Source of the DNA: Lysobacterales bacterium
GTDB taxonomy: Bacteria; Pseudomonadota; Gammaproteobacteria; Xanthomonadales; SZUA-5
Assembly (NCBI GenBank): GCA_022844165.1
Contig: JALHMH010000036.1
Location: 1 to 48,045 of the forward strand
DNA length: 48,045 bases
Reading direction: 5' to 3'
Part shown: one piece after another, positions 4,231 to 34,650 of the stretch
Position numbering within the stretch: the first letter of the stretch is position 1
Layout of the letters: every line of letters starts with the position of its first letter
Notes under the pieces: generated by a model
Seen by the model: the letters and a program-made list of their open reading frames with translations, nothing else
Told to the model about the DNA's origin: nothing
The model's database searches: none
Made by a program: the position numbers and the translations under genes

Positions 4231-4869
4231 TCACAATTTGATCAATCCCTGCTGCACGGCATTGAACACAGCTTCGGAGCGGGAGGTGGCAGCGAGTTTG
4301 GGGTAGAGGTTCTTGACGTGATGGGCGAGGGTGTTGGTTTGCATGCCCAGGATCTCCGCGGCCTGACGGTAGGTGTGGCCCCGCGCCAGTGTCTCCAGCA
4401 CTTCGCGTTCGCGCGGTGTCAGCTCGTTCATTGGATTGGTCTTCGCGTGGCGTTCCTGTTGGCGCAACTTGCGCAGCATGAAACCGGCGACGGCAGAGGA
4501 AATAGGCGATTCGCCGGCGGCGGCGGCGCGCAGCGCATCGAGTAGCTCGGTGCTGTCGGCGCCTTTCAGGACATATCCATCGACGCCGGCTTCGATGGCC
4601 TCAAGTACGCTGGTTTCATCGCCGAATAGCGTGAACACCACCACCACTGGCCGGCGTTTGCCGAGTGATTTCAGCAGTTCCGTGCCGCGACCATCGGGCA
4701 AGCCTAGATCGAGCAAGAGAATGTCGGCGGGTTGGGCGAGCGCAGCGCGCGCCTGATCCAGATCGTGCGCGATCCAGACGAGCGTAAATTCGTCGGTGCT
4801 GGAAAGGCTTCGTTGCACGGATTCGCAGACCGCGAGGTTATCTTCGACGAGGGCGACGGTTTTGGTCAT
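4231..4869 (-). CDS. NarL/LuxR-family response regulator
   Basis: REC domain (LVED, LLDLGLPD, GYVLK) plus LuxR HTH (LTPREREVL). Confidence 0.95.
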   Translation of the reverse strand: MTKTVALVEDNLAVCESVQRSLSSTDEFTLVWIAHDLDQARAALAQPADILLLDLGLPDGRGTELLKSLGKRRPVVVVFTLFGDETSVLEAIEAGVDGYVLKGADSTELLDALRAAAAGESPISSAVAGFMLRKLRQQERHAKTNPMNELTPREREVLETLARGHTYRQAAEILGMQTNTLAHHVKNLYPKLAATSRSEAVFNAVQQGLIKL

Positions 4870-7114: not shown

Positions 7115-8797
7115 CTACAAATTTGCCGAAGGGAGCACGTGCTCGGACTGATGGAACCCATGGCACGCAATACAGGTACTCGGGAGTAACTCCTGGTGAT
7201 GCTCACCTGCGTGGCACTGACGGCAGTTAGTGATTTCGGGAATCAGCAAATCGGCGCTCGCCTGCGATTGACTCGCGATGTGGCAGGCTTCGCAGTCCAT
7301 CGTGACGTGGGCGTTGTGCGTGAAGCGCGATTTTTCGTACCACTGGCCTGCCACCCGCACGGGAGCAACCTGCCAGCCGCCCCGGACTGCGGCGGGGTCT
7401 TTGCTGACGCTATGACACACGCCGCAGGCCCGCCCAGAAAACAGCGTATCGGTGGTCTGGGTGGACTTTTGTTGCGCCCAGGCAAGCGCCTCGCGACGCT
7501 CTTCTTGCGACGGCGGCGGCTGTCCAGGACGCCGCCGTTGGCGCACGATCACGGGCGCGGTGACATCGTCGTAACCACCTTCCAGGGCGACTTTTGCGTA
7601 GAACTCATCGAGCATGTATTGCACAGCCGCAACGTCGGCGTGCGGCACCTGACGGTCTGGGATTCGCAGATCGAAATCCAGGCGATGGCAGTCCTGGCAG
7701 TGCTGCTCAAAATCGATTGGTGCGATCAGCGCACCACCGGGCTCGGCGGTATGGCAATCGGCGCAAACCAGGTTCACCGTTCCGCTTGGGCTGGTCACAC
7801 CACGCTCGCGCAAATGCGTGGCGTGCGGGAACTTGAGCCCGGAGCTTTCGATCAGCGGGATCTGGTCCATGCTCGTGCGCACAGGCGCAAAACTCCCGTC
7901 TTCGGCCCAGGCAGGCAGCAGCACACTGAACTGCGGATGCGAGCGTCCGAAGTCTTCCACATTGGTCAATAGCGTTTGATTCGGAATGCGTTCAGTCAAA
8001 TTGCGATGACAATCGGAGCACAGGATCTGGTCGTTGCGCACCAGGCCTTCATTGCCGTTGTGGTCGCGATGGCAATGCGCGCAACGGGCCTCGGCAATGT
8101 CTGGTAGCGGGAACTGTGCCGGATCGGCGTGCGCCGGCGTGGCGGTGTGGCAGGCCACACACTTTTCATCTTGCACAACTTCGAACGGCTCGCCGTGGCA
8201 GGCCTGACAATCGCCTGCCATCGTGTGGTGCGCGTCGTGCAGACGTCCGGTGTCCCAGGCGTTTATCGCGACCATCGGCATGTGCTCCGTCGCGATGCGC
8301 AGCGTCGGTACATAGTGCGCCGCCAAGGGAATACCCAAACCGATGATCAGCATCGAGACCAGTCCGATCCACGCCGCGCGGCGTTTGCCGGCGCCCGCTT
8401 CGGCCAGTGTCATTGGTAGCGCTTCGGCGTCTTCGCGGGCGGCAACTTCGGTTTTGTCGACCAACGACACTTCCACCGCGGCTTCGAAGTCCTTCGGTGG
8501 ATCGACCAGCGTGATGCGCGTATTGCCGACCTCGATCTGGCTGCCAGAGGTGGCGGTCGCGTTTTGTTCGAGTCTGCCGTCCAGACGAATGCCGGAGGCG
8601 ACCAATGCCTCAATACGGTAGCGGCCGTTGCCCAGCACAGTGACGGTGGCATGCTCCAGAGCAGCCCGTAGATCGTTGACGAAAATCGCTTGATCGGCGG
8701 CGCGGCCGATGCTCAGCGTATCGCCAAAGTGGATTTCCTCCTCGTACGAGACGCTGCCTTTGCCTTTTTTGACGACGCGGCGAATGTGCCATTTCAT
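7115..8797 (-). CDS. FHA-like domain + TM anchor + decaheme cytochrome c
   Basis: Ten CxxCH motifs (CQACH, CVACH, CAHCH, CSDCH, CADCH, CQDCH, CGVCH, CEACH, CRQCH, CIACH). N-terminal SIGR...EHA FHA-like segment and one hydrophobic helix (WIGLVSMLIIGLGIPL). Confidence 0.9.
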   Translation of the reverse strand: MKWHIRRVVKKGKGSVSYEEEIHFGDTLSIGRAADQAIFVNDLRAALEHATVTVLGNGRYRIEALVASGIRLDGRLEQNATATSGSQIEVGNTRITLVDPPKDFEAAVEVSLVDKTEVAAREDAEALPMTLAEAGAGKRRAAWIGLVSMLIIGLGIPLAAHYVPTLRIATEHMPMVAINAWDTGRLHDAHHTMAGDCQACHGEPFEVVQDEKCVACHTATPAHADPAQFPLPDIAEARCAHCHRDHNGNEGLVRNDQILCSDCHRNLTERIPNQTLLTNVEDFGRSHPQFSVLLPAWAEDGSFAPVRTSMDQIPLIESSGLKFPHATHLRERGVTSPSGTVNLVCADCHTAEPGGALIAPIDFEQHCQDCHRLDFDLRIPDRQVPHADVAAVQYMLDEFYAKVALEGGYDDVTAPVIVRQRRRPGQPPPSQEERREALAWAQQKSTQTTDTLFSGRACGVCHSVSKDPAAVRGGWQVAPVRVAGQWYEKSRFTHNAHVTMDCEACHIASQSQASADLLIPEITNCRQCHAGEHHQELLPSTCIACHGFHQSEHVLPSANL

Positions 8798-8807
8798 CGC
8801 TGCGCCC

Positions 8808-9701
8808 TCACCAGTAGAAAAACACAGACAGGATGTGTGCGGTCAAGGCGCCAAGCAGCGCGAGCGACAGCGGCACGTGAATGTACAGCCAGATTTCCAT
8901 CAGTGCCTGCAACTGGATGTCTCGCGCGACGCGGCTGGCAAGCGCACGTTTGCGCGACACCAGATCGATCAGGCGGCGCAGCGTGTCGCTTTGCACGTCG
9001 TTGGCTTGATTGGCTAGAAAGTCGACCATCACAACCATGGTTTGCCCCGAGCGGTGTTGTTTGTCGGCGGTCGCAGCCTGCGTGACGGCTTCTTTGAGTC
9101 GCGTCAAGGCCTGGCCCGAGTCGTCTTTTGCCGTGAGCTGTGCCCAGAGCCCGCCGCCGAGCCTGGTGTTCTGGATCGATCGCAGAATCGCATCGTGCAC
9201 CGATTTGTCGACCTTGTCCGCCAGTTGCAGCGCTTGTGCGTCGAGTTCGCGAATCTCTGCCACCATCGCTTCGCGGGTCGCACTGGCGCGATTGCGCGTC
9301 ATCAGCGCCGGGTACCGCAGGTATGCGTAGACACCGAAAAATCCGCTGAAGATCACCAGCAACATCAGCACCAGGGCCAGCGTATGGATGTTCCAGCCGA
9401 CCTGGAATCCCGAGTGCAGCAAACTGATCAGTATCAGCGAGGTGCCCAGATACACGTGCGCACTCAACCAGCCACGCGCCGTGCCGATCGCTCGTCCATA
9501 GCGGCGTTTGCGGATGCCGAACCACAGCAACCACACGATTAATACCGCGCCGATCGTGCCTAAGGTATAGCCCAACCACGAGCCGCCATTTGGCACGCCG
9601 ATCGGATCGTGCCACAGGTACGCCGTCAGTGAGCCTGCGCACAGCAAGATCGATACCCAAAGGTAGCGATAGCTGCGGAAATTAAGGATCGAGTCATGCA
9701 T
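8808..9701 (-). CDS. Integral membrane protein, probable di-heme b (ferric-reductase-like transmembrane domain)
   Basis: Several TM segments and two H-x13-H pairs (HVYLGTSLILISLLH; HVPLSLALLGALTAH). Start taken at ATG 9701 (MHDSIL), downstream of the tandem repeat. Confidence 0.75.
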   Translation of the reverse strand: MHDSILNFRSYRYLWVSILLCAGSLTAYLWHDPIGVPNGGSWLGYTLGTIGAVLIVWLLWFGIRKRRYGRAIGTARGWLSAHVYLGTSLILISLLHSGFQVGWNIHTLALVLMLLVIFSGFFGVYAYLRYPALMTRNRASATREAMVAEIRELDAQALQLADKVDKSVHDAILRSIQNTRLGGGLWAQLTAKDDSGQALTRLKEAVTQAATADKQHRSGQTMVVMVDFLANQANDVQSDTLRRLIDLVSRKRALASRVARDIQLQALMEIWLYIHVPLSLALLGALTAHILSVFFYW

Positions 9702-22973: not shown

Positions 22974-25172
22974 ATGCCCAAAAAAACTCCTGTTGCACCC
23001 AACCCCACCCAGGTTCTGGCATTCCTTCAGGCCAAAGGCCAGTTGATGAAGGCCGAAGCCATCGCCGACGAGCTCGGTTACAAGTCCGCACCAGGGATCG
23101 AGGCGATGCGTGCCCTGCTCGACGAACTTGTCGTGCAGGGCCGGCTGCTGATGAACCGACGCGGCGGCTTCGGCATTGCCGCGCGCATGGATCTGATTGC
23201 CGGCAGCGTCATCGCAAACGCCGAAGGCTTTGGGTTCCTCAAGCCCGATGAAGGGCAGGGCGACATTTACCTTCCGCCCAATCAAATGCGTCAGGTGTTG
23301 CATGGCGATCGGGCGCTGGTCAGCGTGGTCGGTCGCGATCGCCGCGACCGTCCAGAAGGCGCCATCGTCTCGATTCTGTCGCGGCGCTCTCCGCGGATCG
23401 TCGGGCGTTATCTGGAAGAGGCTGGCTTTGGCGTTGTTGCCCCCGATGATCGCCGCATACATCAAGACCTGTTGATCCCTTCGGGCGCAGCCGGCGGCGC
23501 CGCGCCGGGCGATATCGTAGTGGCAGAAATCACCGAGCCGCCAACGGCGCATCGCCAGCCGGTGGCGAAGATCGTGCGCGTTCTGGGCGAAGACATCGGT
23601 ACCTCGTTGGCGGTCGATATGGCGATCGAAAGCCACGGTCTGCCGCACGAATGGCCAGAGGTTGTGCTCCATCAGGCGGCAAAGATCTCCGATACGGTGA
23701 AACCGGCACAGCGCAAGAATCGTGAGGATCTTCGTGAGCTGCCGCTGGTGACCATTGATGGCGAAGATGCGCGCGACTTCGACGACGCCGTTTGGTGCGA
23801 ACCACTGCGCAGTGGCGGGTTCAAGTTGATCGTCGCGATAGCCGATGTCGCCAGTTATGTCGTCGCAGGGACCCCGCTGGATGATGAGGCGCAGGCCCGC
23901 GGCACCAGTGTCTACTTTCCACAGCGCGTCGTGCCGATGTTGCCCGAAAAACTGAGCAACGGCATTTGCTCCCTGAAGCCCAACGTGGATCGCTTGTGTC
24001 TTTGCTGCGAAATGCGCATCGACAAGAATGGCGAAGTGACGCGCTCGCGATTTTTCAGTGGCGTGATGCGTTCGGCAGCGCGGCTGACGTATCGCCAGGT
24101 ATGGCAGGCCATCGGCGAGAAGCGAGCGGAAGTGCGCGAGCAGGTCAAACATGTCTTGCCGCAAATCGAGAATCTGTACGCGCTTTACCAGAGGTTCGCC
24201 GCACGGCGTGCGGCGCGCGGGGCGCTCGATTTCGAGGGCCAGGAAGTGCGCTTCGAGTTCGATGTCGATGGCAACATCGACGCCGTCAAACCTTACGAGC
24301 GCAATCCGGCGCACAAACTCATCGAAGAGTGCATGATCGCGGCCAATGTTGCCGCAGCGAAGTTCCTGAAGCGATCCAAGATCCCGGCTTTGTATCGCGT
24401 CCATCCGCGGCCACCGGTGCACAAGTACGAAGAACTGATCGCGTTTTTGTCGTCGGTTGCAATCAACATTCCAGCCTACGAAGACCTGACGCCAGCGGAT
24501 CTGATGGTGGTGCTGGAGAAGGCGCGCAAACGCCCGGATGGTGCGCTGATCCACGCCGTGGTGTTGCGTTCGCAGAGCATCGCAAGTTACGCACCCGCGT
24601 GCGACGGGCACTTTGGGCTCGCGCTTGGCGCCTACGGACACTTCACCTCGCCGATTCGGCGCTATCCGGACTTACTCGTCCATCGTGCGATTTATCACGC
24701 TCTCGCAGGCGGCAAAGCGGATGACTACACCTACAGTGACGCGCGAATGGGAGACCTTGGCCGGCACTGCTCTGCAACCGAACGGCGTGCCGATGAGGCC
24801 AGTCGGGATGTGGTCGATCGCCTGAAGTGTGCCTATATGGAGCGACACCTCGGCGATGAATTTGAGGGCGTGGTCACCGGCGTTGCGACGTTCGGTATGT
24901 TTGTCGAAATTCCCGAAACCAAAATCACCGGCATGATTCACGTCACGCAGTTACCCAATGACTATTACCACTACGATCAACGGCGCCATTGTCTGGTCGG
25001 CGAACGCCGTGGCTTGAAGTTCCAGCTCGCCGATCGGGTGAAGATCAAAGTGCTGCGCGTCGACGCCGTCGAGCGCAAAATCGACTTCAAACTGGCCGGA
25101 GACGAGCCGACACGCGCGGACTCAGGCAATCGGCAGCAGTTCGGCGATCGCCAGAAGCGCCGCCGACGCTAG
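22974..25172 (+). CDS. rnr: Ribonuclease R
   Basis: N-terminal HTH and cold-shock domains, TIDGEDARDFDDA, HFTSPIRRYPDL, S1 domain and basic tail. Confidence 0.97.
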   Translation: MPKKTPVAPNPTQVLAFLQAKGQLMKAEAIADELGYKSAPGIEAMRALLDELVVQGRLLMNRRGGFGIAARMDLIAGSVIANAEGFGFLKPDEGQGDIYLPPNQMRQVLHGDRALVSVVGRDRRDRPEGAIVSILSRRSPRIVGRYLEEAGFGVVAPDDRRIHQDLLIPSGAAGGAAPGDIVVAEITEPPTAHRQPVAKIVRVLGEDIGTSLAVDMAIESHGLPHEWPEVVLHQAAKISDTVKPAQRKNREDLRELPLVTIDGEDARDFDDAVWCEPLRSGGFKLIVAIADVASYVVAGTPLDDEAQARGTSVYFPQRVVPMLPEKLSNGICSLKPNVDRLCLCCEMRIDKNGEVTRSRFFSGVMRSAARLTYRQVWQAIGEKRAEVREQVKHVLPQIENLYALYQRFAARRAARGALDFEGQEVRFEFDVDGNIDAVKPYERNPAHKLIEECMIAANVAAAKFLKRSKIPALYRVHPRPPVHKYEELIAFLSSVAINIPAYEDLTPADLMVVLEKARKRPDGALIHAVVLRSQSIASYAPACDGHFGLALGAYGHFTSPIRRYPDLLVHRAIYHALAGGKADDYTYSDARMGDLGRHCSATERRADEASRDVVDRLKCAYMERHLGDEFEGVVTGVATFGMFVEIPETKITGMIHVTQLPNDYYHYDQRRHCLVGERRGLKFQLADRVKIKVLRVDAVERKIDFKLAGDEPTRADSGNRQQFGDRQKRRRR

Positions 25173-25230: not shown

Positions 25231-26490
25231 ATGTTTGAGACGTTATCCGAGGAAGTGTTGTCGTTGGCGGTCGCTCTGGGCTGCGGGCTGCTGATTGGAA
25301 TCGAACGGGAGCAGCATAAAGCTGACCACGAGGGCCGCCAGGCGGCAGGTGTGCGCACCTTGGCGCTGGTGGCGCTGTCTGGCGCGGTAGCCAGTCTGCT
25401 TGGGCCGATGGCGATTGCCGTGACGGGTGGTTTTATTGCGCTCGTGGCTGTCGTCGGGTACTGGCGAACCCGCGATCACGAACCCGGGTTGACCACCGAA
25501 GTTGCGATCGTTTTGACCTTCCTGATCGGCATGGTGGCCGTACAGTCCCGCGCCCTGGCTGCAGGTGTCGCAGTCGTCGTGACCATCATCTTGCAGAGCA
25601 AGGGCGTTCTGCATCGCTTTTCGCACAAAGTCCTGACCGAGCAGGAGTTGAATGATGGCCTGCTGTTGCTCGCGTCGGCCCTGGTCATTCTGCCAATCCT
25701 GCCCGATGCGCCGATTGGCCCATTCGAAGGCTTGAACCTGAAACGCCTTTGGACGTTGGTGGTGTTGGTCATGGCGATCAACGCGCTGGGTTACGTGGCA
25801 ATGCGCATGGCCGGGCCACGCCTCGGTTTGCCGTTGACCGGGCTGGTGGGTGGATTCGTGTCCAGTTCGGCCACTATCGCCAGCATGGGGCACCGCGCAC
25901 AAGCGGATCCGGCGCTCTTGCGCGCGGCTGCCGCGGGCGGTATGGCATCCAATCTGGCCACGTTGACCATGCTGGTGGCCATCACCATTGTGATTGATCG
26001 AGCCGTTCTGCTCAGTTTGCTGCTGCCACTGGCGCTGTCTTTTGTGGTCGTCGCCGTTGCGTCGGGTTGGCTCGGCTGGCGCGCATGGCGCGCAACGTCG
26101 ATCGCAGCGCAGAGCAACGGTCAATCGCGTCCATTTCACTTCGGCCACGCGCTGAGTTTCGCCGGACTGATTGCCCTGGTGCTGGTGGTTTCGGATCTTT
26201 TGGCCAGCGTCCTGGGCGATATGGGCGCGACCATCGGTGCTGGTGCCGTCGGTTTTGCCGATGCGCACGCGCCTGCCGTGTCGCTCACGGAACTTGCCGC
26301 CCAAGGCCGTATTGATGTCGCGAGCGCGCAATTGGGCATTCTGCTGGCCCTCTCCAGTAATACGCTGACCAAAATCGTGATCGTGCGCAGCATTGGCGGG
26401 CCGCGTTATGCGCGCTACATGCTGCCGGGCCTGCTGCTGATGTTGCTCGCCCTGTGGTTGGGATACGCAGTTTCGCGCTGGCCGTTGTAA
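25231..26490 (+). CDS. MgtC/SapB-family membrane protein with DUF4010-like domain
   Basis: Motifs GLLIGIERE, AGVRT, GLTTE and GGFVSSSAT; many TM segments. Confidence 0.9.
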   Translation: MFETLSEEVLSLAVALGCGLLIGIEREQHKADHEGRQAAGVRTLALVALSGAVASLLGPMAIAVTGGFIALVAVVGYWRTRDHEPGLTTEVAIVLTFLIGMVAVQSRALAAGVAVVVTIILQSKGVLHRFSHKVLTEQELNDGLLLLASALVILPILPDAPIGPFEGLNLKRLWTLVVLVMAINALGYVAMRMAGPRLGLPLTGLVGGFVSSSATIASMGHRAQADPALLRAAAAGGMASNLATLTMLVAITIVIDRAVLLSLLLPLALSFVVVAVASGWLGWRAWRATSIAAQSNGQSRPFHFGHALSFAGLIALVLVVSDLLASVLGDMGATIGAGAVGFADAHAPAVSLTELAAQGRIDVASAQLGILLALSSNTLTKIVIVRSIGGPRYARYMLPGLLLMLLALWLGYAVSRWPL

Positions 26491-27020
26491 TGCAAACAGT
26501 GACTGACATCGAACTGCGATTGTCTTCTATCGAGCAACTCTTCGACCGGCTCGATCCCGCCCCGTTCCACGCCAAAGCCCTCGACCGCAATGCCGATGCC
26601 TACATTCAGGAATGCGCCGCCGAATACAGCGGCCATCATCCACTGCGAATCGTCATTTCTGGCCCACACGAACTCGGACAACACCTCGACGACATTCGAC
26701 TCGCCATCCACGAACATTTTGCGCTGGCACACCGCCAGGCGGAAAGGCGCCATCGTCGTCGTCGGCGCATCGGGCGCGTTGCACTGCTCGCGGGGCTCGC
26801 AACGCTGACCATTTCGCTGTTGATACGGCGTCTGGTCACGGATGTCGGCGGCCCGTGGTCGGATATCCTGGCCGAAGGGCTGTTGATATTGGGTTGGGTG
26901 GCGCTCTGGCGTCCGATCGAGACCATCGCCTTCGACTCCTGGGAGAGCCGCGATCAGCGCCGCCTGCTCGCCACGCTGGCGTCGATTCCGGTGGACTTTT
27001 CGGCTGCGATGGGTGCCTGA
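26490..27020 (+). CDS. Hypothetical two-TM membrane protein
   Basis: TAATG coupling to the upstream stop; QLFDRLDPAPF...GWVALWRPIE with two hydrophobic helices. Confidence 0.8.
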   Translation: MQTVTDIELRLSSIEQLFDRLDPAPFHAKALDRNADAYIQECAAEYSGHHPLRIVISGPHELGQHLDDIRLAIHEHFALAHRQAERRHRRRRRIGRVALLAGLATLTISLLIRRLVTDVGGPWSDILAEGLLILGWVALWRPIETIAFDSWESRDQRRLLATLASIPVDFSAAMGA

Positions 27021-27212
27021 GGCGCGCGATCCCACTATGGTTCGATTCAGGCGGCTACTCAGCTGCCGGCTATACCCGATCTCAAAACCCAATTCGTTGA
27101 CATTGAGCCGGAAATTGACCACCGAAAGTGAAGTTTCTTAGCAATTTGGCTTGCTTTCGGCTGGATGTTTTGGCAGCGTGAAGCTCCACACGGCGCGGCA
27201 GGGGAATTGTGC

Positions 27213-27797
27213 GTGGCGGGCGAAAAGGGCGGGCTGGCCGAGTTGTTGTGTGGCCTCGTTGGCCGGATCTCCCGTGGCGAGGCGAGCGCCGAGCAGGAGT
27301 TTATGGCGCGCTATCGAGTCACCGCCTGCGCCATTGCCGCGCGGCACTGCCGGCCGAACGAGCCGCAGCTCGATGACATTGTGCAAGACGTGTTGACGGC
27401 CGTGCTCGCCAAACTGCGCGCGGGCGCCATCCACGATCCCATCGCCCTGCCGCACTACTTGCAGCAAAGCCTCAAACATGCGTGCCTGGCGCACTACCAG
27501 AGTGTTGAGAAGGCGCGCGAACGGCACAGCGACACGCCCGTCGAATCCGTGCCGCAAACGCATAACGATCCGGTCGATCTGATGGAACACCGCCAACGCA
27601 AAGCCATCGCGCGGGCCTTGGTGGAGGCACTGCCGCAGCCGCGAGATCGCGAAGTCCTGAGGCGCTTCTACATTCTCGAAGAGTCGCGCGAGACCATTTG
27701 TCGAACCCTTCAAATCGACGAGCCACACTTTCGCAAAATCATGTCTCGCGCCCGCACACGGTTGCGTGAACTCGCAGACGAAAGGGGAATGTTGTGA
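27213..27797 (+). CDS. ECF-type RNA polymerase sigma factor
   Basis: Region-2-like DDIVQDV and region-4-like LPQPRDREVLRRFY...IC..L...IMSRARTRLRE. Start uncertain (ATG 27165 or GTG 27213 after GGGGA). Confidence 0.9.
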   Translation: MAGEKGGLAELLCGLVGRISRGEASAEQEFMARYRVTACAIAARHCRPNEPQLDDIVQDVLTAVLAKLRAGAIHDPIALPHYLQQSLKHACLAHYQSVEKARERHSDTPVESVPQTHNDPVDLMEHRQRKAIARALVEALPQPRDREVLRRFYILEESRETICRTLQIDEPHFRKIMSRARTRLRELADERGML

Positions 27798-27873
27798 GTC
27801 GCCTCGTTCGCAATCCTTGCGCGCTGCCACCCACCAGCGAACGGACCGGTCACGTCACCTGCCAGGCGCTCCT

Positions 27874-27899
27874 GGAACAAAATCCGTTCAAATTGTCAC
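27874..27899 (+). promoter_or_regulatory. Possible ECF-type promoter upstream of the anti-sigma gene
   Basis: GGAAC-N16-GTCAC in the ~180-bp gap between sigma and anti-sigma. Confidence 0.3.
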
Positions 27900-27978
27900 A
27901 ATCAGCGCTGCGACAACCCAACCGTTGTCCTCTCCTTTATCCGCATAGGGGAAACAACATCACGACCGGACCAATCCC

Positions 27979-28560
27979 GTGAGCGAGTTCCGCCCCACCA
28001 CCGAAGACATGGCACCTTGGCTGGAGCAAGCCTGGATGGAACGCTACCTCAATCGCGAACTGGACGAAGCCGAAAGCGATTGGTTTGAGGCGTATTTGTT
28101 GGATCGGCCGGGGTTGGTTGATCAAGTCAAATCTGAGACCAAGATTTCTGCCGCTACAAATGAGCGCGTCGTTCATGACAGACGAAATACTTGGCTGCCA
28201 TTAGCGATGTCTGCAGTTGCGGTCTTGGCATTATCGGGCGCGTACTTTAAGTTCACCGCGCAGGAGCCGAGTTGGGACGTACCGGAGGTATTGCGCATTG
28301 AAGGCGTAAGGGGTCTTGATGTCCACAGGTTGCCTTTACTCCCGAATTCCACGAGAGGCGATAGTCCGGTACTGTTTGAAATTATCGGTCCACAGAATGC
28401 ACGGACTATGTATTTGAGCCTCGTGCATACGGACAAAACGACCACGCGACTAGGGCCGGTGGCATCGAATGACGGCGTTTTTTTTGTCCTTGTGAGTCGT
28501 GAGAGTCTGAGTGGCGTATTGAGGATCAACTCGGAGTTTTCCAGGGGGGGCAATGATTGA
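27979..28560 (+). CDS. Putative transmembrane anti-sigma factor
   Basis: N-terminal anti-sigma-domain-like ERYLNRELDEAESDWFEAYLLD (no HxxxCxxC), one TM (WLPLAMSAVAVLALSGAYF) and a C-terminal extracytoplasmic domain; immediately follows the sigma gene. Confidence 0.7.
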   Translation: MSEFRPTTEDMAPWLEQAWMERYLNRELDEAESDWFEAYLLDRPGLVDQVKSETKISAATNERVVHDRRNTWLPLAMSAVAVLALSGAYFKFTAQEPSWDVPEVLRIEGVRGLDVHRLPLLPNSTRGDSPVLFEIIGPQNARTMYLSLVHTDKTTTRLGPVASNDGVFFVLVSRESLSGVLRINSEFSRGGND

Positions 28561-29095
28561 GGTCGTCTGTAAAGTTATCAAATGCGATTTCTGCGTAGGG
28601 AGTGGTGTTCTGATTTCTCCCAAGCATGTACTGACGTGTGCGCACGTCGTTTCGAATGACTTAACAATTCAATTGAGTGATGGGACTAGCCATCAAGGCA
28701 AGCTTAAGGCGCAGCTGGGTACGCCGCCGATAGTCATTAATGAGAACCTTTGTTCAGAGGTACTCGCAATCATAGAGATCGAAAAAGGCGTTGGTCGCCA
28801 AGCATTTCCCAAAATTTCTAGTGAAATGCCAAATACTGGCGCGGTCGCAGAGCTGCGTGCGTTCAGAAGCGACGGCCGAAGTTTCAGTTCGCAATACGAA
28901 GCTATCGCAATGGGCGAAAGATGCATTCTTTGGGCGGGGCCTCAGACCATGGATGGCCTAAGTGGTGGTGGATACTTTCTCGACGATGAACTTCTGGCGA
29001 TCCATGTCGGATGGGGATATGACCAAGGGCAAGGGCGAACTGCATCTCTTGCCGTTTCTTCTGCGGTTGATTGGATCCGAAATAAAATCAGATAG
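28553..29095 (+). CDS. Small trypsin-like (S1) serine protease
   Basis: GSGVLISPKHVLTCAHVV (His) and GLSGGG (Ser); overlaps the anti-sigma stop. Confidence 0.85.
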   Translation: MIEVVCKVIKCDFCVGSGVLISPKHVLTCAHVVSNDLTIQLSDGTSHQGKLKAQLGTPPIVINENLCSEVLAIIEIEKGVGRQAFPKISSEMPNTGAVAELRAFRSDGRSFSSQYEAIAMGERCILWAGPQTMDGLSGGGYFLDDELLAIHVGWGYDQGQGRTASLAVSSAVDWIRNKIR

Positions 29096-29105
29096 GAGGT
29101 TGGTT

Positions 29106-29648
29106 GTGGGCGATTTCTTCCGCGGGAGTTTGAAATGTCTTTTTTTGAAGAGCGCGTGTGATTTGTTGCCACCTAATAACCGTGGCTGGGAGCTTGTGGC
29201 AGTTAAGGGCGGTAGCGTTCTGAAAGCTGGGGATGATGTCTGTTTCGCACCGAGTTCAAACGCAACGGCCTATGTTTCGATTATGAGGCCACAGGTGCCG
29301 CCGCAGCCACCGCAGCAGATTCTCATCTCTATGAACGTAGCGCTAGGCATGCCGGCTGGTCAGCAAGAATTTCATTGGCTTGAAGGAACGGATGGCAAAT
29401 ATCGGATATTTCTATATCGCTTGGTGTCGGATGAAGCCAGTAAACGTGCGCAATTGCATATCGAGATATTCGACGTTAAAGGCAGTCACGTAAACGACTA
29501 CCCGACGTCTGGCGGGATTACGTATCCACCCAAGTCGGACGCGCAGGCGTTTTTTGCAGCGCGCCTGAAGTCGCCGCCTGGGGAACCCGTCTTGGCTGGC
29601 CAGCCAAACCAGGATGACGAAGGCACTGGCCAGGAGCCCTTTCCCTGA
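29106..29648 (+). CDS. Hypothetical protein (~180 aa) with Pro-rich/acidic C-terminal tail
   Basis: AGGAGG RBS overlapping the protease stop, then GTG 29106; in frame with ORF 28962..29648. Confidence 0.7.
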   Translation: MGDFFRGSLKCLFLKSACDLLPPNNRGWELVAVKGGSVLKAGDDVCFAPSSNATAYVSIMRPQVPPQPPQQILISMNVALGMPAGQQEFHWLEGTDGKYRIFLYRLVSDEASKRAQLHIEIFDVKGSHVNDYPTSGGITYPPKSDAQAFFAARLKSPPGEPVLAGQPNQDDEGTGQEPFP

Positions 29649-29686
29649 TATTTCTCTCGTTTTGGGCGCACTTCGCTGGCGCTGCA

Positions 29687-32494
29687 TTGGCCAGCGAAGT
29701 GCGGTTGAACTGTGGCGATCAAGTTTTGATCGCCGTTTCGCAGCGCGCGATTGTTCAAGCCGATGGTTGGCTTCGGATTCGCGAAACAGGCGTTGATGTG
29801 GGTTGGGGTCATCCGGTCCGGGAGATCAGCGGGCGCCCGCCGAGACTCTCTGAGGTATCGCGCGCGGTCAGCGCTGGTGATGAAACGCCAATCGTCGGTA
29901 AGTCGGGCTTGGCGATTGTGGAGTTGCATTGCGGCACGCATTCGCCATACCTGCAATGCTGGAACCAGGTTCGCACCGCCGCGGATGCAGCCAATGGTCG
30001 AGAACTCGAACGGCTCACCGCTGAGCACGGCACTTGCGGTGCCCTGGCGGAACACGAGCTGGCATTTCTGGTGGCGCGATCGGGTGAGCACGTCCGCGCG
30101 CATGCCATTTATGCTCGACTGGTGACGCGGTGGCAGCAGTTGGGCGAGTTGGATCGTGCTGCCGCCGCAGCGCTCGGACAAACGGAGCAATCGGCGAACG
30201 CTGGGAATTTTTTGCAGGCGCGAGACGAGTCGTTCGTTGCCGAACGAATGAATCTGGCGGTTGGTTTGGATGCATTTGCGCGTCGGGCAAGGGTCACACG
30301 TGCCACGGCATTGGCAAACTCCGGCCAACGAGCGGCCGCGAAGCGGGTTACACTGGCGTTGATCTCCGAATACGAACAGATCGGCGAGTGCAACGAAGCG
30401 GTCAATCTTGGGATCAATGCAGCTCAGATTGCAAACCTTGAGGGCGATATTGTTGGTCTGGATAGCTGGATCGATCGCCTTGCCAGTGCCGATCACTGCC
30501 AGTTGACGCCTGTGGTTCAGAACCGACTGGCTTTAGTACGTGCGCGCGCCGCGACGATACGCGGGGAGTTTGCGCAAGCGATACGAATCTACTCGGATAC
30601 CGTTGCACTCGAGGCCAACGCTGTTCAGCGTTCGCAAATCTACCGCGCCCTCGCGGAACTCTATCGGCAGTTGGGTATGCACACCGAAGCGTACTCTTAC
30701 ATCGCCAGGTCGCTGCGCGAGATCCCGTCCTCAGAGGCTCCTCATCGTGTCGCATGGTCGCTGATGGTGTTGGCATCGATTGACCATGACACTGGGCGTG
30801 GCGAGTCTTCCGCGCAATGGCTCCGGTCTGCCAATCAGATATTCACTTCACTCGGTCTCGATGACGAATCGGCGCTGTCCCGCATGTGGTTGGCGCAAGT
30901 CGAGTTGCTGAGTGGGGGAACAGAATCGGCGCGTGCTCTACTCGACCATCAATCGGGAACACGCAACCGCGTACGAGCCTGTCTACTTGAAGCCGAAATT
31001 CTTCGGGTCGAAGGCAATCTCGCGGCGGCTCGAACCACGCTTGCCTCGCACAAATGCGTACCTTTGGCGCTGGACGATATCTTGATGCATGCGGCGACGT
31101 TATCGCAGTCAGTGTCCATCGAGGCAGAGGCCAATGCGGCAACGCTCGCCGCAGCACGTCGTATCGAATCGCTGGTGGCAGGCGCGCATCCTGCGCTTCA
31201 GTTTGCGGCTCTGAGGCGTGCTGCGACGCTGCGCGATGCGGCCACGGCGCGGCCTCTTGGTCGCGCCGAAAACCTTGCCAATCTCATTCTGGCCACCCAT
31301 CCGTATCGTCAATCTCATGGACCGCGTTCGGCGGAGGCGGTTTCCCCAGCATTCGGCTTATGGCTGCTCAACGATGTTGTCAGTCCGGCCGCTAAGGAAA
31401 ACAGTGACCGTGCGGTATTGAAGGCGCTGGGCCAGGAGAATCAAGGCGATTCGACGCCAATTGAAATTTCCGATGTTCGGCGATCTCTTGGTGAGCGAGA
31501 GTGGATGCTGATGATTTCTTTGGGTGATCGACAAAGTGCAGCCATCTGGATGTCGAGAAACGAGCTGCTGCTTTCACCTCTGCCAGGTCGCAGCGTACTC
31601 GTCGGCCAGGTAGAGAACCTCCACTCGGCGTTGTTACGGCGGCAGGGTGCCGAACTCGACGTCGCCATTGAGCGTCTGTCTTCGACTCTGATGAGCACCG
31701 CACCAGCTCTTCGCGAACGGCTGCTCATCCTGGCAGATGATCGGCTGGGTTTGATCCCGTGGTCCGTGCTGGAGGCTGACGGTAAGCCACTCATCGAAAA
31801 AACATCTATCAGTTGGATATCTAGTCTGACGGTTCAGACATCACCTCACCCCCTGATTGACGCCGCTACAGCCATTGTTGCCTCCAATGTTGGGCCGGGC
31901 GCCAGCAACAGGCTTGCACCGCTCTATAGCGCGGTTCACGAAACCGATCTCTTGTCGTTGTCGTTGCCCAGGCTCAAGTTGGAGGCCCTCACTGCGTCTA
32001 AGGCGACGCCAGAAGCGCTGCAACGAGCGTTGATGAGCTCGGGTCGATTGGTACACGTTGCAGCCCACGGGTACTCAAGTCCTCAGGAAATGGGCTACGC
32101 AGGCCTGTGGCTTGCGCCGGACGCGATCGGTGGAGAACCACAATTTATGTCATGGATGGATGTTGCAACATCGCCGCTCAACGCGAGTTTGGCTGTGCTC
32201 AACGCATGTCAGCTTGCGGCAGGATCGACGACGGTCAGCACGCCGAGTTTCGCGCTCGCGGTATCGACAGCTGGCGTGCAAAATGTCATCGCTGCCGCCT
32301 GGCCAGTGAGCGATGCAGCGACCAACGTCTGGGTGCCTGCGTTCTACCATGCGCTTGATCTGAACGATCCGTCCAGCAGTGCTGAAGCGCTGCGCCATGC
32401 GCAGCTTGCCTTGCGAAACTCCCGGTACTTTCGTCATCCCTACTATTGGGCATCGCTGGCGCACTATCGACAGTTGGGAATCAAACCGCCTTAG
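29687..32494 (+). CDS. TPR-like + CHAT (caspase HetF-associated) protease
   Basis: Helical Ala-rich repeats followed by CHAT motifs LIPWSVL, VHVAAHG (His), VLNAC (Cys), WPVSD, AEALRHAQL and HPYYWA. The true start may lie upstream (see findings). Confidence 0.92.
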   Translation: MASEVRLNCGDQVLIAVSQRAIVQADGWLRIRETGVDVGWGHPVREISGRPPRLSEVSRAVSAGDETPIVGKSGLAIVELHCGTHSPYLQCWNQVRTAADAANGRELERLTAEHGTCGALAEHELAFLVARSGEHVRAHAIYARLVTRWQQLGELDRAAAAALGQTEQSANAGNFLQARDESFVAERMNLAVGLDAFARRARVTRATALANSGQRAAAKRVTLALISEYEQIGECNEAVNLGINAAQIANLEGDIVGLDSWIDRLASADHCQLTPVVQNRLALVRARAATIRGEFAQAIRIYSDTVALEANAVQRSQIYRALAELYRQLGMHTEAYSYIARSLREIPSSEAPHRVAWSLMVLASIDHDTGRGESSAQWLRSANQIFTSLGLDDESALSRMWLAQVELLSGGTESARALLDHQSGTRNRVRACLLEAEILRVEGNLAAARTTLASHKCVPLALDDILMHAATLSQSVSIEAEANAATLAAARRIESLVAGAHPALQFAALRRAATLRDAATARPLGRAENLANLILATHPYRQSHGPRSAEAVSPAFGLWLLNDVVSPAAKENSDRAVLKALGQENQGDSTPIEISDVRRSLGEREWMLMISLGDRQSAAIWMSRNELLLSPLPGRSVLVGQVENLHSALLRRQGAELDVAIERLSSTLMSTAPALRERLLILADDRLGLIPWSVLEADGKPLIEKTSISWISSLTVQTSPHPLIDAATAIVASNVGPGASNRLAPLYSAVHETDLLSLSLPRLKLEALTASKATPEALQRALMSSGRLVHVAAHGYSSPQEMGYAGLWLAPDAIGGEPQFMSWMDVATSPLNASLAVLNACQLAAGSTTVSTPSFALAVSTAGVQNVIAAAWPVSDAATNVWVPAFYHALDLNDPSSSAEALRHAQLALRNSRYFRHPYYWASLAHYRQLGIKPP

Positions 32495-32553: not shown

Positions 32554-33945
32554 TCAATCCCCGCCCGGCAGCGTCGCCAGGTCTTCGGCCTGGAGCTGAA
32601 GATTGTTGGCGAGATTGAGCAGGTCGGTCATGGTGAAACGGCCTTTTTGCGCGCTGGGGAGGGTGGGGGTCCAGCCGGGTTTTTGCGCGAGGAAGGAGGC
32701 GCGATCGGCGAGCATCAGGGCGACAAAAACGCCGGCGACGATTTCGGCACCCACGCCTGCGAGTCGATGGCCAGCGGCGCGGACTTCGGCTTCGCGCAAA
32801 CAGTAGAACCACAGTGGGCCTTCGCCGCTGCCGCCCTTGACGTCTTTCCACAGCTCTTTGGCCTTGAGCTTGGGAATGTCGAGGAAATCGGCCACGTCGT
32901 CGCCGGACGGCAAGTTTGCGTCCAGTCCGCGCTGCAGGTTACGGATGGCCAACGAGCGCTGATGCGCGGGCACGCCAGGTGGAATGACCGAGTTGGGCAG
33001 GTTCAGCAGGGTGGATGACAGCCGGATATCGATCAACTTACTGGGCTGGGCGTTCGTGCCAAAAAAGGCGGCCCAGTTGACTTGCCGGTCCGGGGGAATG
33101 ATCCGGCCACCGCCCAGGTGGGGGATGTTGTCCGGGTCTGCTGGGAACAAGATCGCGCCGCCAGTACCAATGCCGCCATAACCGGGGCGGACTTGACTGT
33201 GGCCGAACCGATAGGCGGCCACGCTGAATTCGACGGGCATGAAGGGCTCGCGCGGAAAGCGGAAGCGCGGCTTTTGCAGCATGCGCTTGACCGTCTTGCT
33301 GCCGACCAGCCGCGGCAGGAATTCGTGCAACACCATCCATTGGTAATGCCAGCGCACTAATTTCTGCGCGGCTTCGAAGCGCGACGGACCGGATTGACTC
33401 GCATCAGTGTGCTTTTCGAACACCGCGTTGTGGAACTTGAGAAAACTCGTGTGCAATTGCGAAATGATGCCGTTTTCATCGTTGCGCGGATCGCCGATCA
33501 GCGCCACCTCTTGAAAGTTGCGCGGCACATCGTTGCCGTTTTCGCCGATCAGGAAGCGAAACGGCTTGGTTTTGTCGTAAAGCCAGGGTTGCGCGCCAGG
33601 CCCCAGTCCATAAAGTGAATCCAACTCAAAGGCTGGCGTGCGAAAGTTGCGCGTGGCTTGCAGGTCGATCTGCTGCTCGAGAATCGAGGTCGGATCGAAA
33701 GTGAGATCATGATCGACGAACTGGCCGAGAAAGGTATAGCCAGCTTTGATGCGCGGATTGTCCTGGCTGGTGTCTGTGGGAGGTGGGCTGCCACCGTCCA
33801 TGGGCCCACCGGCGGCGCCGAGTACCGCTGGCTCCGGCGACATTTTTTTCTGTGTTCTTAGCTCCGGAAAAAGACGCCCGAACCGCCCGGTGTCCGCAAA
33901 CCGCCCCCGTGGTACGTTCGATCCACGGTCTTGATAACCATGCAT
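32554..33945 (-). CDS. Heme peroxidase, peroxidase-cyclooxygenase ('animal heme peroxidase') superfamily
   Basis: GQFVDHD (distal His), GDPRNDEN (distal Arg) and YRFGHS (proximal His). GAGG RBS; no signal peptide evident. Confidence 0.92.
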   Translation of the reverse strand: MHGYQDRGSNVPRGRFADTGRFGRLFPELRTQKKMSPEPAVLGAAGGPMDGGSPPPTDTSQDNPRIKAGYTFLGQFVDHDLTFDPTSILEQQIDLQATRNFRTPAFELDSLYGLGPGAQPWLYDKTKPFRFLIGENGNDVPRNFQEVALIGDPRNDENGIISQLHTSFLKFHNAVFEKHTDASQSGPSRFEAAQKLVRWHYQWMVLHEFLPRLVGSKTVKRMLQKPRFRFPREPFMPVEFSVAAYRFGHSQVRPGYGGIGTGGAILFPADPDNIPHLGGGRIIPPDRQVNWAAFFGTNAQPSKLIDIRLSSTLLNLPNSVIPPGVPAHQRSLAIRNLQRGLDANLPSGDDVADFLDIPKLKAKELWKDVKGGSGEGPLWFYCLREAEVRAAGHRLAGVGAEIVAGVFVALMLADRASFLAQKPGWTPTLPSAQKGRFTMTDLLNLANNLQLQAEDLATLPGGD

Positions 33946-34041: not shown

Positions 34042-34650
34042 TCACCCCACCATCGCGCCCCAGCGGTTGACGATAGTGCAGAACAATTCTGCGGTTTGTT
34101 CGGCGTCGTACACTGCCGAGTGCGCCTGCCCGGCGTCCCATTCGATGCCTGCGGCTTTCAGCGCTTTGGCGAGCACGGTTTGGCCGTAGGCCAAGGCAGC
34201 GAGGCTGACGGTGTCGAAAGTGCTGAACGGATGGAACGGCGAGCGCTTGTGGCCGGTGCGGGCAATGGCGGCATTCAAGAAATTCAGATCGAACGCAGCG
34301 TTGTGGCCAACCAGAATGGTGCGCTGACAGCCGTACGACTTCTGCGCCTTGCGAACGGGATCGAAGATGGCATCCAGTGCTTCGCGTTCGGGCAGTGCGC
34401 CGCGCAACGGGTGAAATGGATCGGGGATGCCGATGACTTCGAGCGCCTTGGGATCGAACCTGGCGCCGTCGAACGGCAACACGTGCGCGGCAACTGTGGC
34501 GCCACGGACCAGTCGCCCCTCCCGCCAATCCAACATGACCGCGGCGATTTCCAGGAGCGCGTGCTGGGTATGGTCAAAACCGCCGCATTCGACATCCACG
34601 ACGACAGGATAAAAACCACGAAAACGTTCGGCGAGCGTGAGGTCGTTCAA
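34042..34650 (-). CDS. rnt: Ribonuclease T
   Basis: Motifs [26 protein letters not shown] and AHSAVYDAE. Confidence 0.96.

Follow-up and report, generated by a model that had tools for sequence, protein, structure and literature searches.

A five-gene sigma factor and TPR-CHAT protease cassette of Lysobacterales: a possible split relative of the DdvS/DdvA switch with a previously unannotated family of small proteins

We analysed a stretch of 48,045 nucleotides (nt) from a Lysobacterales bacterium (contig JALHMH010000036.1 of assembly GCA_022844165.1), which is called the window in the following and to which all positions refer unless stated otherwise, and concentrated on a cassette of five genes which are all co-oriented on the + strand. 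It starts with a gene for an extracytoplasmic function (ECF) type sigma factor, recognised by model TIGR02937 and running from an ATG at 27165 or an in-frame GTG at 27213 to 27797, and continues 181 nt downstream with a gene for an anti-sigma-like protein of 193 amino acids (aa; 27979-28560), which shows one hydrophobic segment and a conserved N-terminus. The two following genes code for a trypsin-like protease of 180 aa (28553-29095; PF00089) and for another protein of 180 aa with a GTG start (29106-29648), which is recognised by its own family profile and is referred to here as the tail protein. The last gene codes for a protein consisting of tetratricopeptide repeats (TPR) and a CHAT protease domain (PF12770) and extends from a CTG at 29645 or a TTG at 29687 to 32494; its residues are numbered from the TTG. 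The stop codon of the anti-sigma-like gene overlaps the start of the protease gene (ATGATTGA), a gap of 10 nt separates the stop codon of the protease gene from the GTG of the tail protein gene, and the stop codon of the latter overlaps the CTG (CTGA, 29645-29648), the TTG being the first canonical start codon of the CHAT gene another 38 nt downstream. An earlier note on the same stretch, made from the letters alone, had read five co-oriented genes of these types, and this reading is borne out down to the tight junctions.

The CHAT protein was searched against 39 related genomes, including that of the window, and 23 of these gave matches, several of them with 30-40% identity over the full length. 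We fetched 14 CHAT loci from the relatives and searched them by tblastn with the proteins of the window, which retrieved the CHAT protein in all 14 loci, the ECF sigma factor in nine, the N-terminus of the anti-sigma-like protein in seven, the tail protein in one and the trypsin-like protease in none; two of the five loci without a match to the sigma factor are cut by contig ends. Clustering the plus-strand open reading frames (ORFs) by BLASTP revealed genes which had been missed by tblastn, namely one for a small protein directly upstream of the CHAT gene and, in several loci, one for a serine protease with a GDSGG motif ahead of it, whose identity was confirmed by Pfam. Further loci were obtained from a scan of genome contigs with the anti-sigma alignment (one pattern, yielding five loci with titles of Lysobacterales or Proteobacteria metagenome-assembled genomes) and from searches for the protein families in genomes.

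All five genes are present in the same order in four genomes, namely that of the window and those containing the loci L017 (G003; on the same record as L031), L018 (G001, of the same genus, with an anti-sigma-like protein of 196 aa; on the same record as L028) and L030 (G582; on the same record as L048). Two more loci are cut by contig ends yet consistent with this order, L029 containing the genes for sigma factor, anti-sigma-like protein and protease, and L016 those for the C-terminus of the protease, the tail protein and the CHAT protein, and five keep the order minus the serine protease (L015, L019, L024, L032 and L049). The complete, contig-cut and protease-less loci belong to Lysobacterales in every case. 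The gene order, whose conservation had been set as a test beforehand, is conserved in this sense, and its recurrence in other genomes puts the arrangement far beyond what chance would produce. Because L015 and L030, whose sigma factors are 93% identical, differ in having the serine protease, this gene is facultative. A gene for the small protein and a CHAT gene were further found at a contig end in L014, and L020 and L021 contain genes for a sigma factor, an anti-sigma-like N-terminus and a CHAT protein without a tail protein. The gene pairs seen are sigma and anti-sigma factor with CHAT protein, tail protein with CHAT protein, and serine protease with tail protein. The cassette is accessory and is carried by a few soil and water bacteria; it is not syntenic, since rnr, rnt and the cassette are located on three different contigs in all five relatives tested. 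At one edge of the cassette in G001, directly upstream of the sigma factor gene (L018, oriented positions 4290-4764), we observed near-identical short ORFs and repeated DNA, which suggests a tandem repeat.

The CHAT domain was identified with an E-value of 3.4e-36 and 125.6 bits versus a cut-off of 24 for PF12770. Its His-Cys dyad, which the earlier note had taken as intact, is formed by His794 and Cys841 and is conserved in all 13 sequences of an alignment of CHAT homologues, including the protein of the window. A hydrophobic N-terminal leader followed by a conserved Cys is also present in 13 of 13 sequences, with lipobox-like motifs in L019 (VMAAC) and L049 (LVAGC). The hydropathy of the leader ranges from 1.8 to 2.7 in 12 homologues and amounts to 1.57 in the protein of the window when read from the CTG. 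Because all 13 aligned homologues carry this leader, the CHAT protein is probably exported. Two further residues of its N-terminal domain, Cys9 and Cys82, are the same in every one of 18 sequences compared, which would fit a disulfide.

The start of the CHAT gene in the window is peculiar. The frame is open from 29618, and the leader (..IFLSFWAHFAGAALA) lies in frame upstream of TTG 29687, with no ATG, GTG or TTG ahead of it in frame. The CTG at 29645 occupies the place where L017 and L018 have a GTG overlapping the upstream TGA, and it is preceded by AGGAG 8 nt upstream; the leader is encoded in the window only if translation begins at this codon. When contigs from four DNA runs of one study were compared with positions 29300-30000, only one of them, of low depth, covered the CTG, and it showed the same letters; it probably derives from the same source sample and does not represent independent support. 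Judging from the sequence, the CHAT protein of this genome may be translated from a rare CTG start, or it may be leaderless or impaired by a recently damaged start.

Modelling of the CHAT protein by AlphaFold2 resulted in a structure with a predicted local distance difference test score (pLDDT) of 88.3 and a predicted template modelling score (pTM) of 0.87, with a beta-sandwich at residues 1-82, a TPR superhelix of about 13 TPR-like helix pairs from 87 to about 600, and the CHAT domain. When this model was compared with the Protein Data Bank (PDB) by Foldseek, human separase (9hma) was matched with an E-value of 2e-15 and DdvA, the TPR-CHAT anti-sigma factor of Myxococcus xanthus, with 1.4e-14 (8rot_A). 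The match to DdvA extends over 911 columns and shows the top pair of template modelling (TM) scores in the list with 0.50/0.52, while the chains of Csx29, the TPR-CHAT protease of type III-E CRISPR systems, were matched at about 1e-13 with TM-scores of 0.30-0.37/0.40-0.47. Sequence-based methods did not reach as far: searching the PDB with the CHAT sequence alone gave no match, a CHAT profile retrieved only TPR proteins and no CHAT protease, similarity to DdvA was undetectable by phmmer or profile search, and a word-based search for homologues retrieved the protein itself and two weak matches. We considered whether the beta-sandwich co-occurs with tail proteins and rejected this idea, as the domain is also present in the CHAT loci without tail proteins L020, L021, L022, L023 and L027.

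The tail protein had been called an orphan in the earlier note, a designation which no longer holds. We built a profile from seven locus sequences and searched it against 1.84 billion representative proteins, obtaining 50 matches at E<=1e-3, 30 at E<=1e-10 and four at E<=1e-30. These comprise 37 short proteins of 79-190 aa, two proteins of about 460 aa which match over their C-terminal 170-185 residues, and 11 giant repeat proteins which align to short stretches of the profile and were taken as spurious. The tail protein of the window itself was matched at E 2.3e-49 by this profile, which is partly built from that protein. An alignment of 31 sequences with 26% mean column identity showed invariant D171, G173 and G175 and at least 90% conservation of M1, F4, C11, P133 and P178. 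The family is defined here by a length of 140-190 aa, by an MxDF(W)L start and by a Q-D-D-E-G-x-G-x-x-P motif within a few residues of the C-terminus, which reads Q-D-D-E-G-T-G-Q-E-P-F-P at the end of the window's protein, and none of the members examined has a leader. Meaningful matches to Pfam or NCBIfam were found for none of the 31 members, and the eight members looked up were recorded as hypothetical protein or without a name, so that the supposed orphan belongs to a small, previously unannotated family. This family is rare, having been detected in a single one of 400 sampled genomes of the class, that of the window, and in nine of 299 sampled genomes of the order, in two families. A word-based search for homologues of the tail protein retrieved only itself, and two scans of metagenome contigs with alignments of the family yielded 292 and 367 pattern stretches, none of which was confirmed by tblastn. 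In L019 (G024) and L049 (G468), the small proteins encoded ahead of the CHAT gene match the family over the barrel only, without the Q-D-D-E-G-x-G motif, and one of these matches contains a TGA.

The barrel was apparent from the AlphaFold2 model of the tail protein (pLDDT 86.4), which shows an up-and-down beta-barrel from residue 1 to about 140 followed by a disordered tail of low confidence. Foldseek gave no match at E<=0.001, and the best result of VIA-align, a Z-score of 6.5 versus designed and lipocalin-like barrels, was read as generic; among the listed matches of both programs, there was no gasdermin, known toxin, securin or staphostatin. Complex prediction of the tail protein with CHAT residues 120-935 resulted in scores of 0.00 in both runs versus a mark of 0.32, which speaks neither for nor against an interaction, residues 1-119 with the beta-sandwich having been left out.

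The trypsin-like protease matches PF00089 with 29.6 bits versus a cut-off of 20.6, over residues 17-68 only. We aligned it with its positional counterparts in L017, L018, L030, L016 and L047 as well as with the N-terminal half of each of the two longer tail-family proteins, P0032 and P0045. The alignment shows the His in LTCAHV, a Glu at the acid position and the Ser in GLSGGG, where most of the aligned proteases have GDSGG; the acid position is occupied by Glu in the protein of the window and three others and by Asp in three. With its 180 aa it is the shortest of its group and unusually short for an S1 protease, and it has no hydrophobic leader at the N-terminus. In a scan of seven proteins with PADLOC it was the only one matched, with residues 3-102 fitting the LmuA profile (E 3.2e-7) and with a weak match to Avs1b, and the CHAT protein, tail protein, sigma factor and anti-sigma-like protein gave no match.

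This protease is connected to the tail protein in several ways. In P0032 and P0045, a trypsin-like protease is fused to a tail protein, as judged from the PF00089 score of the former (21.9 bits versus a cut-off of 20.6) and from the His and Ser motifs of the latter in the alignment. A second locus in G020 (L047; G020:C2, 7052-8333) consists of a leaderless trypsin-like protease gene followed by a tail protein gene, and no match to a sigma factor, anti-sigma factor or CHAT protein was found in 15 kb. Towards the other side, the stop codon of the tail protein gene overlaps the start codon of the CHAT gene in five of the ten other loci shown, as GTGA in L017 and L018 versus CTGA in the window. 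From its predicted translational coupling to the CHAT gene and its pairing or fusion with a serine protease elsewhere, the tail protein appears to be the hub of the cassette.

Other CHAT genes are preceded by small proteins of a different kind. Directly upstream of the CHAT genes in L023 (7250-7882, - strand), L025 (4955-5542, -) and L026 (7303-7860, +), we found genes for small proteins with signal peptides which end in Q-P-G-x-G-G-x-x-E-P-P, and a similar N-terminus is encoded in L022. S8 subtilase genes are located nearby in L023 and L026, and a subtilase is encoded in L027 as well. When the leaderless small-protein family was compared with the secreted one by hhalign, we obtained a probability of 67.7% and an E-value of 4.9e-5 over 78 columns, which is suggestive of the secreted proteins possibly being remote homologues of the leaderless ones. 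Throughout the loci examined, small protein and associated serine protease share their compartment, both being leaderless or both carrying a leader (L027), and the CHAT protein always has a leader. L023 additionally contains an ORF of 796 aa (7247-9637, -) which turned out to be an artefact frame antisense to the true subtilase gene (8024-9187, +) and which fuses an anti-sigma-like N-terminus with the separate secreted small protein, calling for caution with ORF calls in this high-GC group. A supposed homology between the periplasmic part of the anti-sigma-like protein and the secreted small proteins was rejected, as the connecting BLAST link ran via this ORF.

The sigma factor was assigned by its match to the sigma70-ECF model TIGR02937 (48.7 bits versus a cut-off of 42.9) and by a weak match to Sigma70_r4_2, and homologues with 38-67% identity are encoded upstream of the CHAT genes in L015, L017, L018, L019, L020, L021 and L024. 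The anti-sigma-like protein contains a single hydrophobic segment with a mean Kyte-Doolittle hydropathy of 2.27 at residue 75, from which we predict about 60 cytoplasmic residues at the N-terminus, a transmembrane helix at about 75-95 and about 98 residues beyond the membrane. Its N-terminal 50-60 residues are 47-71% identical across five related loci. Weak matches to zf-HC2 were found in three of the five aligned family members (best E 0.01), the window's protein not being among them; the latter gave no match in Pfam, NCBIfam or the PDB and shows no visible His/Cys zinc motif in its N-terminus, and a profile of the anti-sigma-like proteins retrieved nothing meaningful from the PDB.

Within the 181-nt gap between these two genes, we detected a bipartite element, G(A/C)GACA-N16-CTCCT(T/G)T, at 27912-27938 on the + strand. 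It recurs at the same place in L015, L017, L018, L029 and L030 with a spacer which is fixed at 16 nt in length and varies in sequence, and inspection by eye indicated a GATA variant in L024 and L032. The copy in the window, whose second part reads CTCCTTT (27932-27938), also forms a 6-bp hairpin. A search of the genome resulted in three matches versus three in a reversed control and gave no enrichment and no wider regulon; one of the three is intragenic and one is located at the start of an ORF without a Pfam match. The element is a candidate for a sigma-dependent promoter of the four downstream genes, an assignment we make with low confidence.

The earlier note had placed these genes in an accessory block between rnr and rnt, which agrees with the domains matched by the flanking genes as well as with the location of the cassette elsewhere in all five relatives. 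The rnr gene (22974-25172) shows RNB, OB_RNB, CSD2 and S1 matches and the rnt gene (34042-34650, -) an RNase_T match, and the interval contains a gene for an MgtC/DUF4010 membrane protein, an ORF of 188 aa, the five cassette genes and a convergent haem-peroxidase-like gene; parC is also present in the flanks. The 188-aa ORF (26454-27020, +) is located between the MgtC/DUF4010 and sigma factor genes, overlaps the end of the former and has no match in Pfam, NCBIfam or PADLOC. The gene convergent with the CHAT gene (32554-33945, -) codes for a protein of 463 aa which matches animal haem peroxidase (PF03098) at E 5.8e-16, and it is probably not a member of the cassette, since none of the related loci examined has it in the flanks of the cassette. 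Among the flanking genes examined, we found no known defence genes, and the flanks, made up of the MgtC/DUF4010 gene, the 188-aa ORF, the haem peroxidase gene, rnr, rnt and parC, contain no island of CRISPR type III-B or of the cyclic-oligonucleotide-based anti-phage signalling system (CBASS). The absence of CRISPR genes nearby, as had been claimed, is confirmed for cas genes in the cassette and its immediate flanks; the only Cas1 match of the genome is on contig C4, Cas7-11 not having been searched genome-wide. The genome contains two further CHAT-domain genes (G000:C14:93312-94151 and G000:C40:22978-23829, in open frames of 1104 and 650 aa).

From these data we infer the following mechanism as a whole. 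The ECF sigma factor would be held at the membrane by the single-pass anti-sigma-like protein, and the separately encoded TPR-CHAT protease, with its predicted DdvA/separase fold and complete dyad, would be exported to the periplasm. Upon a signal from the envelope or from infection, the CHAT protease would clip the extracytoplasmic part of the anti-sigma factor, acting as a site-1 protease, and the RseP-type protease of the genome would then cut within the membrane and set the sigma factor free. The freed sigma factor would probably drive at least the unit of anti-sigma factor, protease, tail protein and CHAT genes from the conserved element. The leaderless trypsin-like protease and the leaderless tail barrel protein, whose invariant C-terminal tail is acidic and contains glycine, are encoded between the anti-sigma and CHAT genes and would constitute a second, separable module. 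The tail protein most likely acts via its tail as a substrate-like partner of the proteases, in one of two ways: it would inhibit or chaperone them, as securin or staphostatin do, or it would be a pro-protein open to cleavage; it could serve as an inhibitor or chaperone before export, as a substrate, or as an adaptor for cytoplasmic steps. An extended version of this scheme, which we regard as unlikely, takes the tail protein as a new type of adaptor coupling proteases: the invariant Q-D-D-E-G-x-G tail would restrain the separase-like CHAT protease as a pseudo-substrate and would be removed by the dedicated serine protease, such that two classes of proteases, acting across the membrane or sequentially during export, would gate an ECF sigma factor. 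If true, the secreted and the leaderless small proteins, matched in their compartments to subtilase and trypsin-like partners, would be versions of a general module.

Several points weigh against this mechanism. If the CHAT protein is exported, the membrane separates it from the tail protein and the protease, which are leaderless, and a simple periplasmic model leaves unexplained why the tail and CHAT genes are so tightly coupled. The CHAT gene of the window has no canonical start codon before the leader and would yield a leaderless, cytoplasmic protein from TTG 29687, and the leader itself is the weakest of the 13. The anti-sigma assignment is based on position, one transmembrane segment and a conserved N-terminus, and the protein is devoid of the CHCC site of DdvA. 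The candidate promoter does not contain the AAC/CGT motifs of DdvS promoters and can form a hairpin in the window, and neither a defence island nor another obvious regulon adjoins the cassette.

ECF sigma/anti-sigma pairs often have the genes downstream of them as targets. If this general rule applied here, the sigma and anti-sigma factors would sense a signal alone or via other proteases, and the three downstream genes would act on other proteins in envelope remodelling, nutrition or competition. We judge it unlikely that this is all there is, even if the conserved element ahead of the anti-sigma-to-CHAT unit, the protease and tail protein pair of L047 without a sigma factor, and the CHAT homologues found with subtilases and secreted small proteins and no upstream sigma factor match (L027, and L025 with its cut contig) would all agree with it. 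An ECF sigma factor match was obtained within the fetched stretch in nine of the 14 CHAT loci of the relatives, two of the other five being cut by contig ends, and the unification of anti-sigma factor and TPR-CHAT in the single polypeptide of DdvA, as given in the DdvA-related text of PMC11506125, argues that such a CHAT protein is part of the sensor. A role of the cassette in anti-phage defence or abortive infection, which can coexist with a split DdvA-like switch, appears rather improbable to us. In this case, either the trypsin-like protease would be a cytoplasmic effector restrained by the tail protein, or the tail protein would be a pro-toxin activated by removal of its tail in analogy to gasdermin, and the sigma factor, anti-sigma factor and CHAT protein would sense infection at the envelope. 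The match of the N-terminal half of the short protease to LmuA and, weakly, to Avs1b would suit such a role, as would the accessory, non-syntenic and patchy occurrence of the cassette (nine of 299 genomes of the order, one of 400 of the class), the stand-alone pair of protease and tail protein, and the control of a defence island by DdvS/DdvA, as far as described in PMC11506125. However, the other four proteins are without a PADLOC match, the barrel resembles generic up-and-down barrels (best Z 6.5) and no gasdermin or known toxin, and known defence genes are missing among the flanking genes examined.

The earlier note had proposed a relay after the model of Csx29 and Csx30, in which a ligand, perhaps a fragment of the tail protein produced by the trypsin-like protease, binds to the TPRs and the CHAT protease cuts the anti-sigma factor to free the sigma factor; this would take place within the cytoplasm, with the cut on the cytoplasmic side of the anti-sigma factor. 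The pairwise associations of the genes are compatible with a relay of proteases as such, and the CHAT protein of the window would indeed be without a leader from TTG 29687, in the same compartment as the leaderless protease and tail protein, to whose gene its own is tightly coupled and which are fused to each other elsewhere; moreover, the Csx29 chains are clear structural matches at E-values of about 1e-13. The placing of the CHAT protease in the cytoplasm is not supported, given the leaders in 13 of 13 homologues, and the leader of the window is kept in frame behind a good Shine-Dalgarno sequence. The TM-scores of at most 0.37/0.47 for any Csx29 chain compare with 0.50/0.52 for DdvA, whose periplasmic TPR-CHAT is the best whole-length match, so DdvS/DdvA in split form, and not Csx29/Csx30, is the closest model. 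The locus contains no cas gene, with Cas1 present only on another contig, and the cytoplasmic part of the anti-sigma-like protein comprises merely about 60-70 residues. A fragment of the tail protein as TPR ligand would have to reach an exported CHAT protein from a leaderless pair, and this idea is not supported, an export step being without any support. We consider the cytoplasmic relay highly doubtful overall.

A natural split version of a DdvA-like switch would be of practical value. According to the sections of PMC11506125 dealing with DdvA, its trigger and its proposed self-cleavage remain untested, everything being in one polypeptide, whereas the split version offers separate genes for protease and substrate, of which combinations and mutants can be assayed in trans. 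In addition, the cassette contributes an unannotated family with an unusually invariant C-terminal tail, which links a serine protease to a caspase-like protease by fusions, stand-alone pairs and translational coupling. If this tail is a pseudo-substrate or cleavage site, the system would represent a bacterial counterpart of the control of separase by securin and a compact signalling cascade of two proteases. If the downstream genes are only a regulon, the cassette would amount to an ordinary ECF operon of the accessory genome which adds one new small family.

Among known systems, separase-securin and staphopain-staphostatin each consist of a protease, of clan CD or of the cysteine type, and a small protein expressed along with it which occupies the active site like a substrate, and staphostatins are leaderless beta-barrels which protect the cytoplasm from an exported protease. 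With the tail protein this is an analogy only, as there is no match in sequence or fold among the matches listed, and the same tail protein also partners a serine protease. ECF54 sigma factors are actinobacterial. The genes described next to them code for a carboxypeptidase, a subtilase and a CHAT protein, and the account of these contexts in PMC8999054 is, as far as it goes, one without an anti-sigma factor. They share with the cassette the genomic linkage of an ECF sigma factor to a CHAT protein and a serine protease, including the subtilase variants in the present CHAT clade (L023, L026 and L027), and differ from it in that the cassette has an anti-sigma-like protein, is found in Lysobacterales and includes a trypsin-like serine protease. 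Other caspase systems are linked to ECF sigma factors in the relevant part of an eLife survey (PMC8195603). In the searchable literature, which consists of main texts without supplements, we found neither a stand-alone exported TPR-CHAT protein with a separate anti-sigma factor nor the tail family. The main text of the ECF reclassification (PMC7826278) contains no CHAT, trypsin, caspase or TPR, and its supplements list the contexts of the groups and may bear on this sigma factor group; a look-up in a protein atlas gave no usable match. The type III-E craspase (Csx29, Csx30 and CASP-sigma; PMC10028731) shares with the cassette a TPR-CHAT protein, an ECF-like sigma factor, a restraining protein and the fold match at about 1e-13. 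Unlike the CHAT homologues with their leaders, Csx29 is cytoplasmic and bound to Cas7-11, for which there is no cas gene at the present locus, and its TM-scores (0.30-0.37/0.40-0.47) are below those of DdvA.

The closest parallel is the DdvS/DdvA system of Myxococcus xanthus, an ECF sigma factor together with a transmembrane anti-sigma factor with a periplasmic TPR-CHAT part (PDB 8rot and 8rw5), as outlined in the corresponding portions of PMC11506125 and PMC6061681. In DdvA the anti-sigma domain is fused to the TPR-CHAT protease, which is proposed in the same portion of PMC11506125 to cut its own linker as a site-1 protease ahead of RseP, and the system is stated there to control a defence island. 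Both systems consist of an ECF sigma factor adjoining a single-pass anti-sigma or anti-sigma-like protein and of a TPR-CHAT protein with a His-Cys dyad, which is probably located outside the cytoplasm here as well, judging from the leaders of the homologues; they share the separase/craspase-type fold, with DdvA (8rot_A) as the best whole-length TM match of the CHAT model, and the role proposed for the CHAT protease as site-1 protease, and the genome also encodes an RseP-type M50 protease. In contrast to the single polypeptide of DdvA, the TPR-CHAT and anti-sigma proteins are separate in all related loci, in the window with two genes between them, which insert a leaderless trypsin-like protease and the tail protein. 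The anti-sigma domain of DdvA is a zinc-bound CHCC three-helix bundle, whereas the CHCC residues are missing in the window's protein; DdvS/DdvA controls an adjacent CBASS/type III-B CRISPR island, and there is none alongside the cassette; and the candidate promoter is devoid of the AAC/CGT motifs which PMC6061681 gives for the promoters of DdvS and of many ECF sigma factors. Protease-gated sigma switches of this kind are already known from DdvS/DdvA, and what is new here is the split arrangement with a separate anti-sigma factor together with a new family of small proteins. Taking likenesses and differences together, we see about an even chance that the DdvS/DdvA switch has a split relative in this cassette, with an inserted module of serine protease and tail protein.

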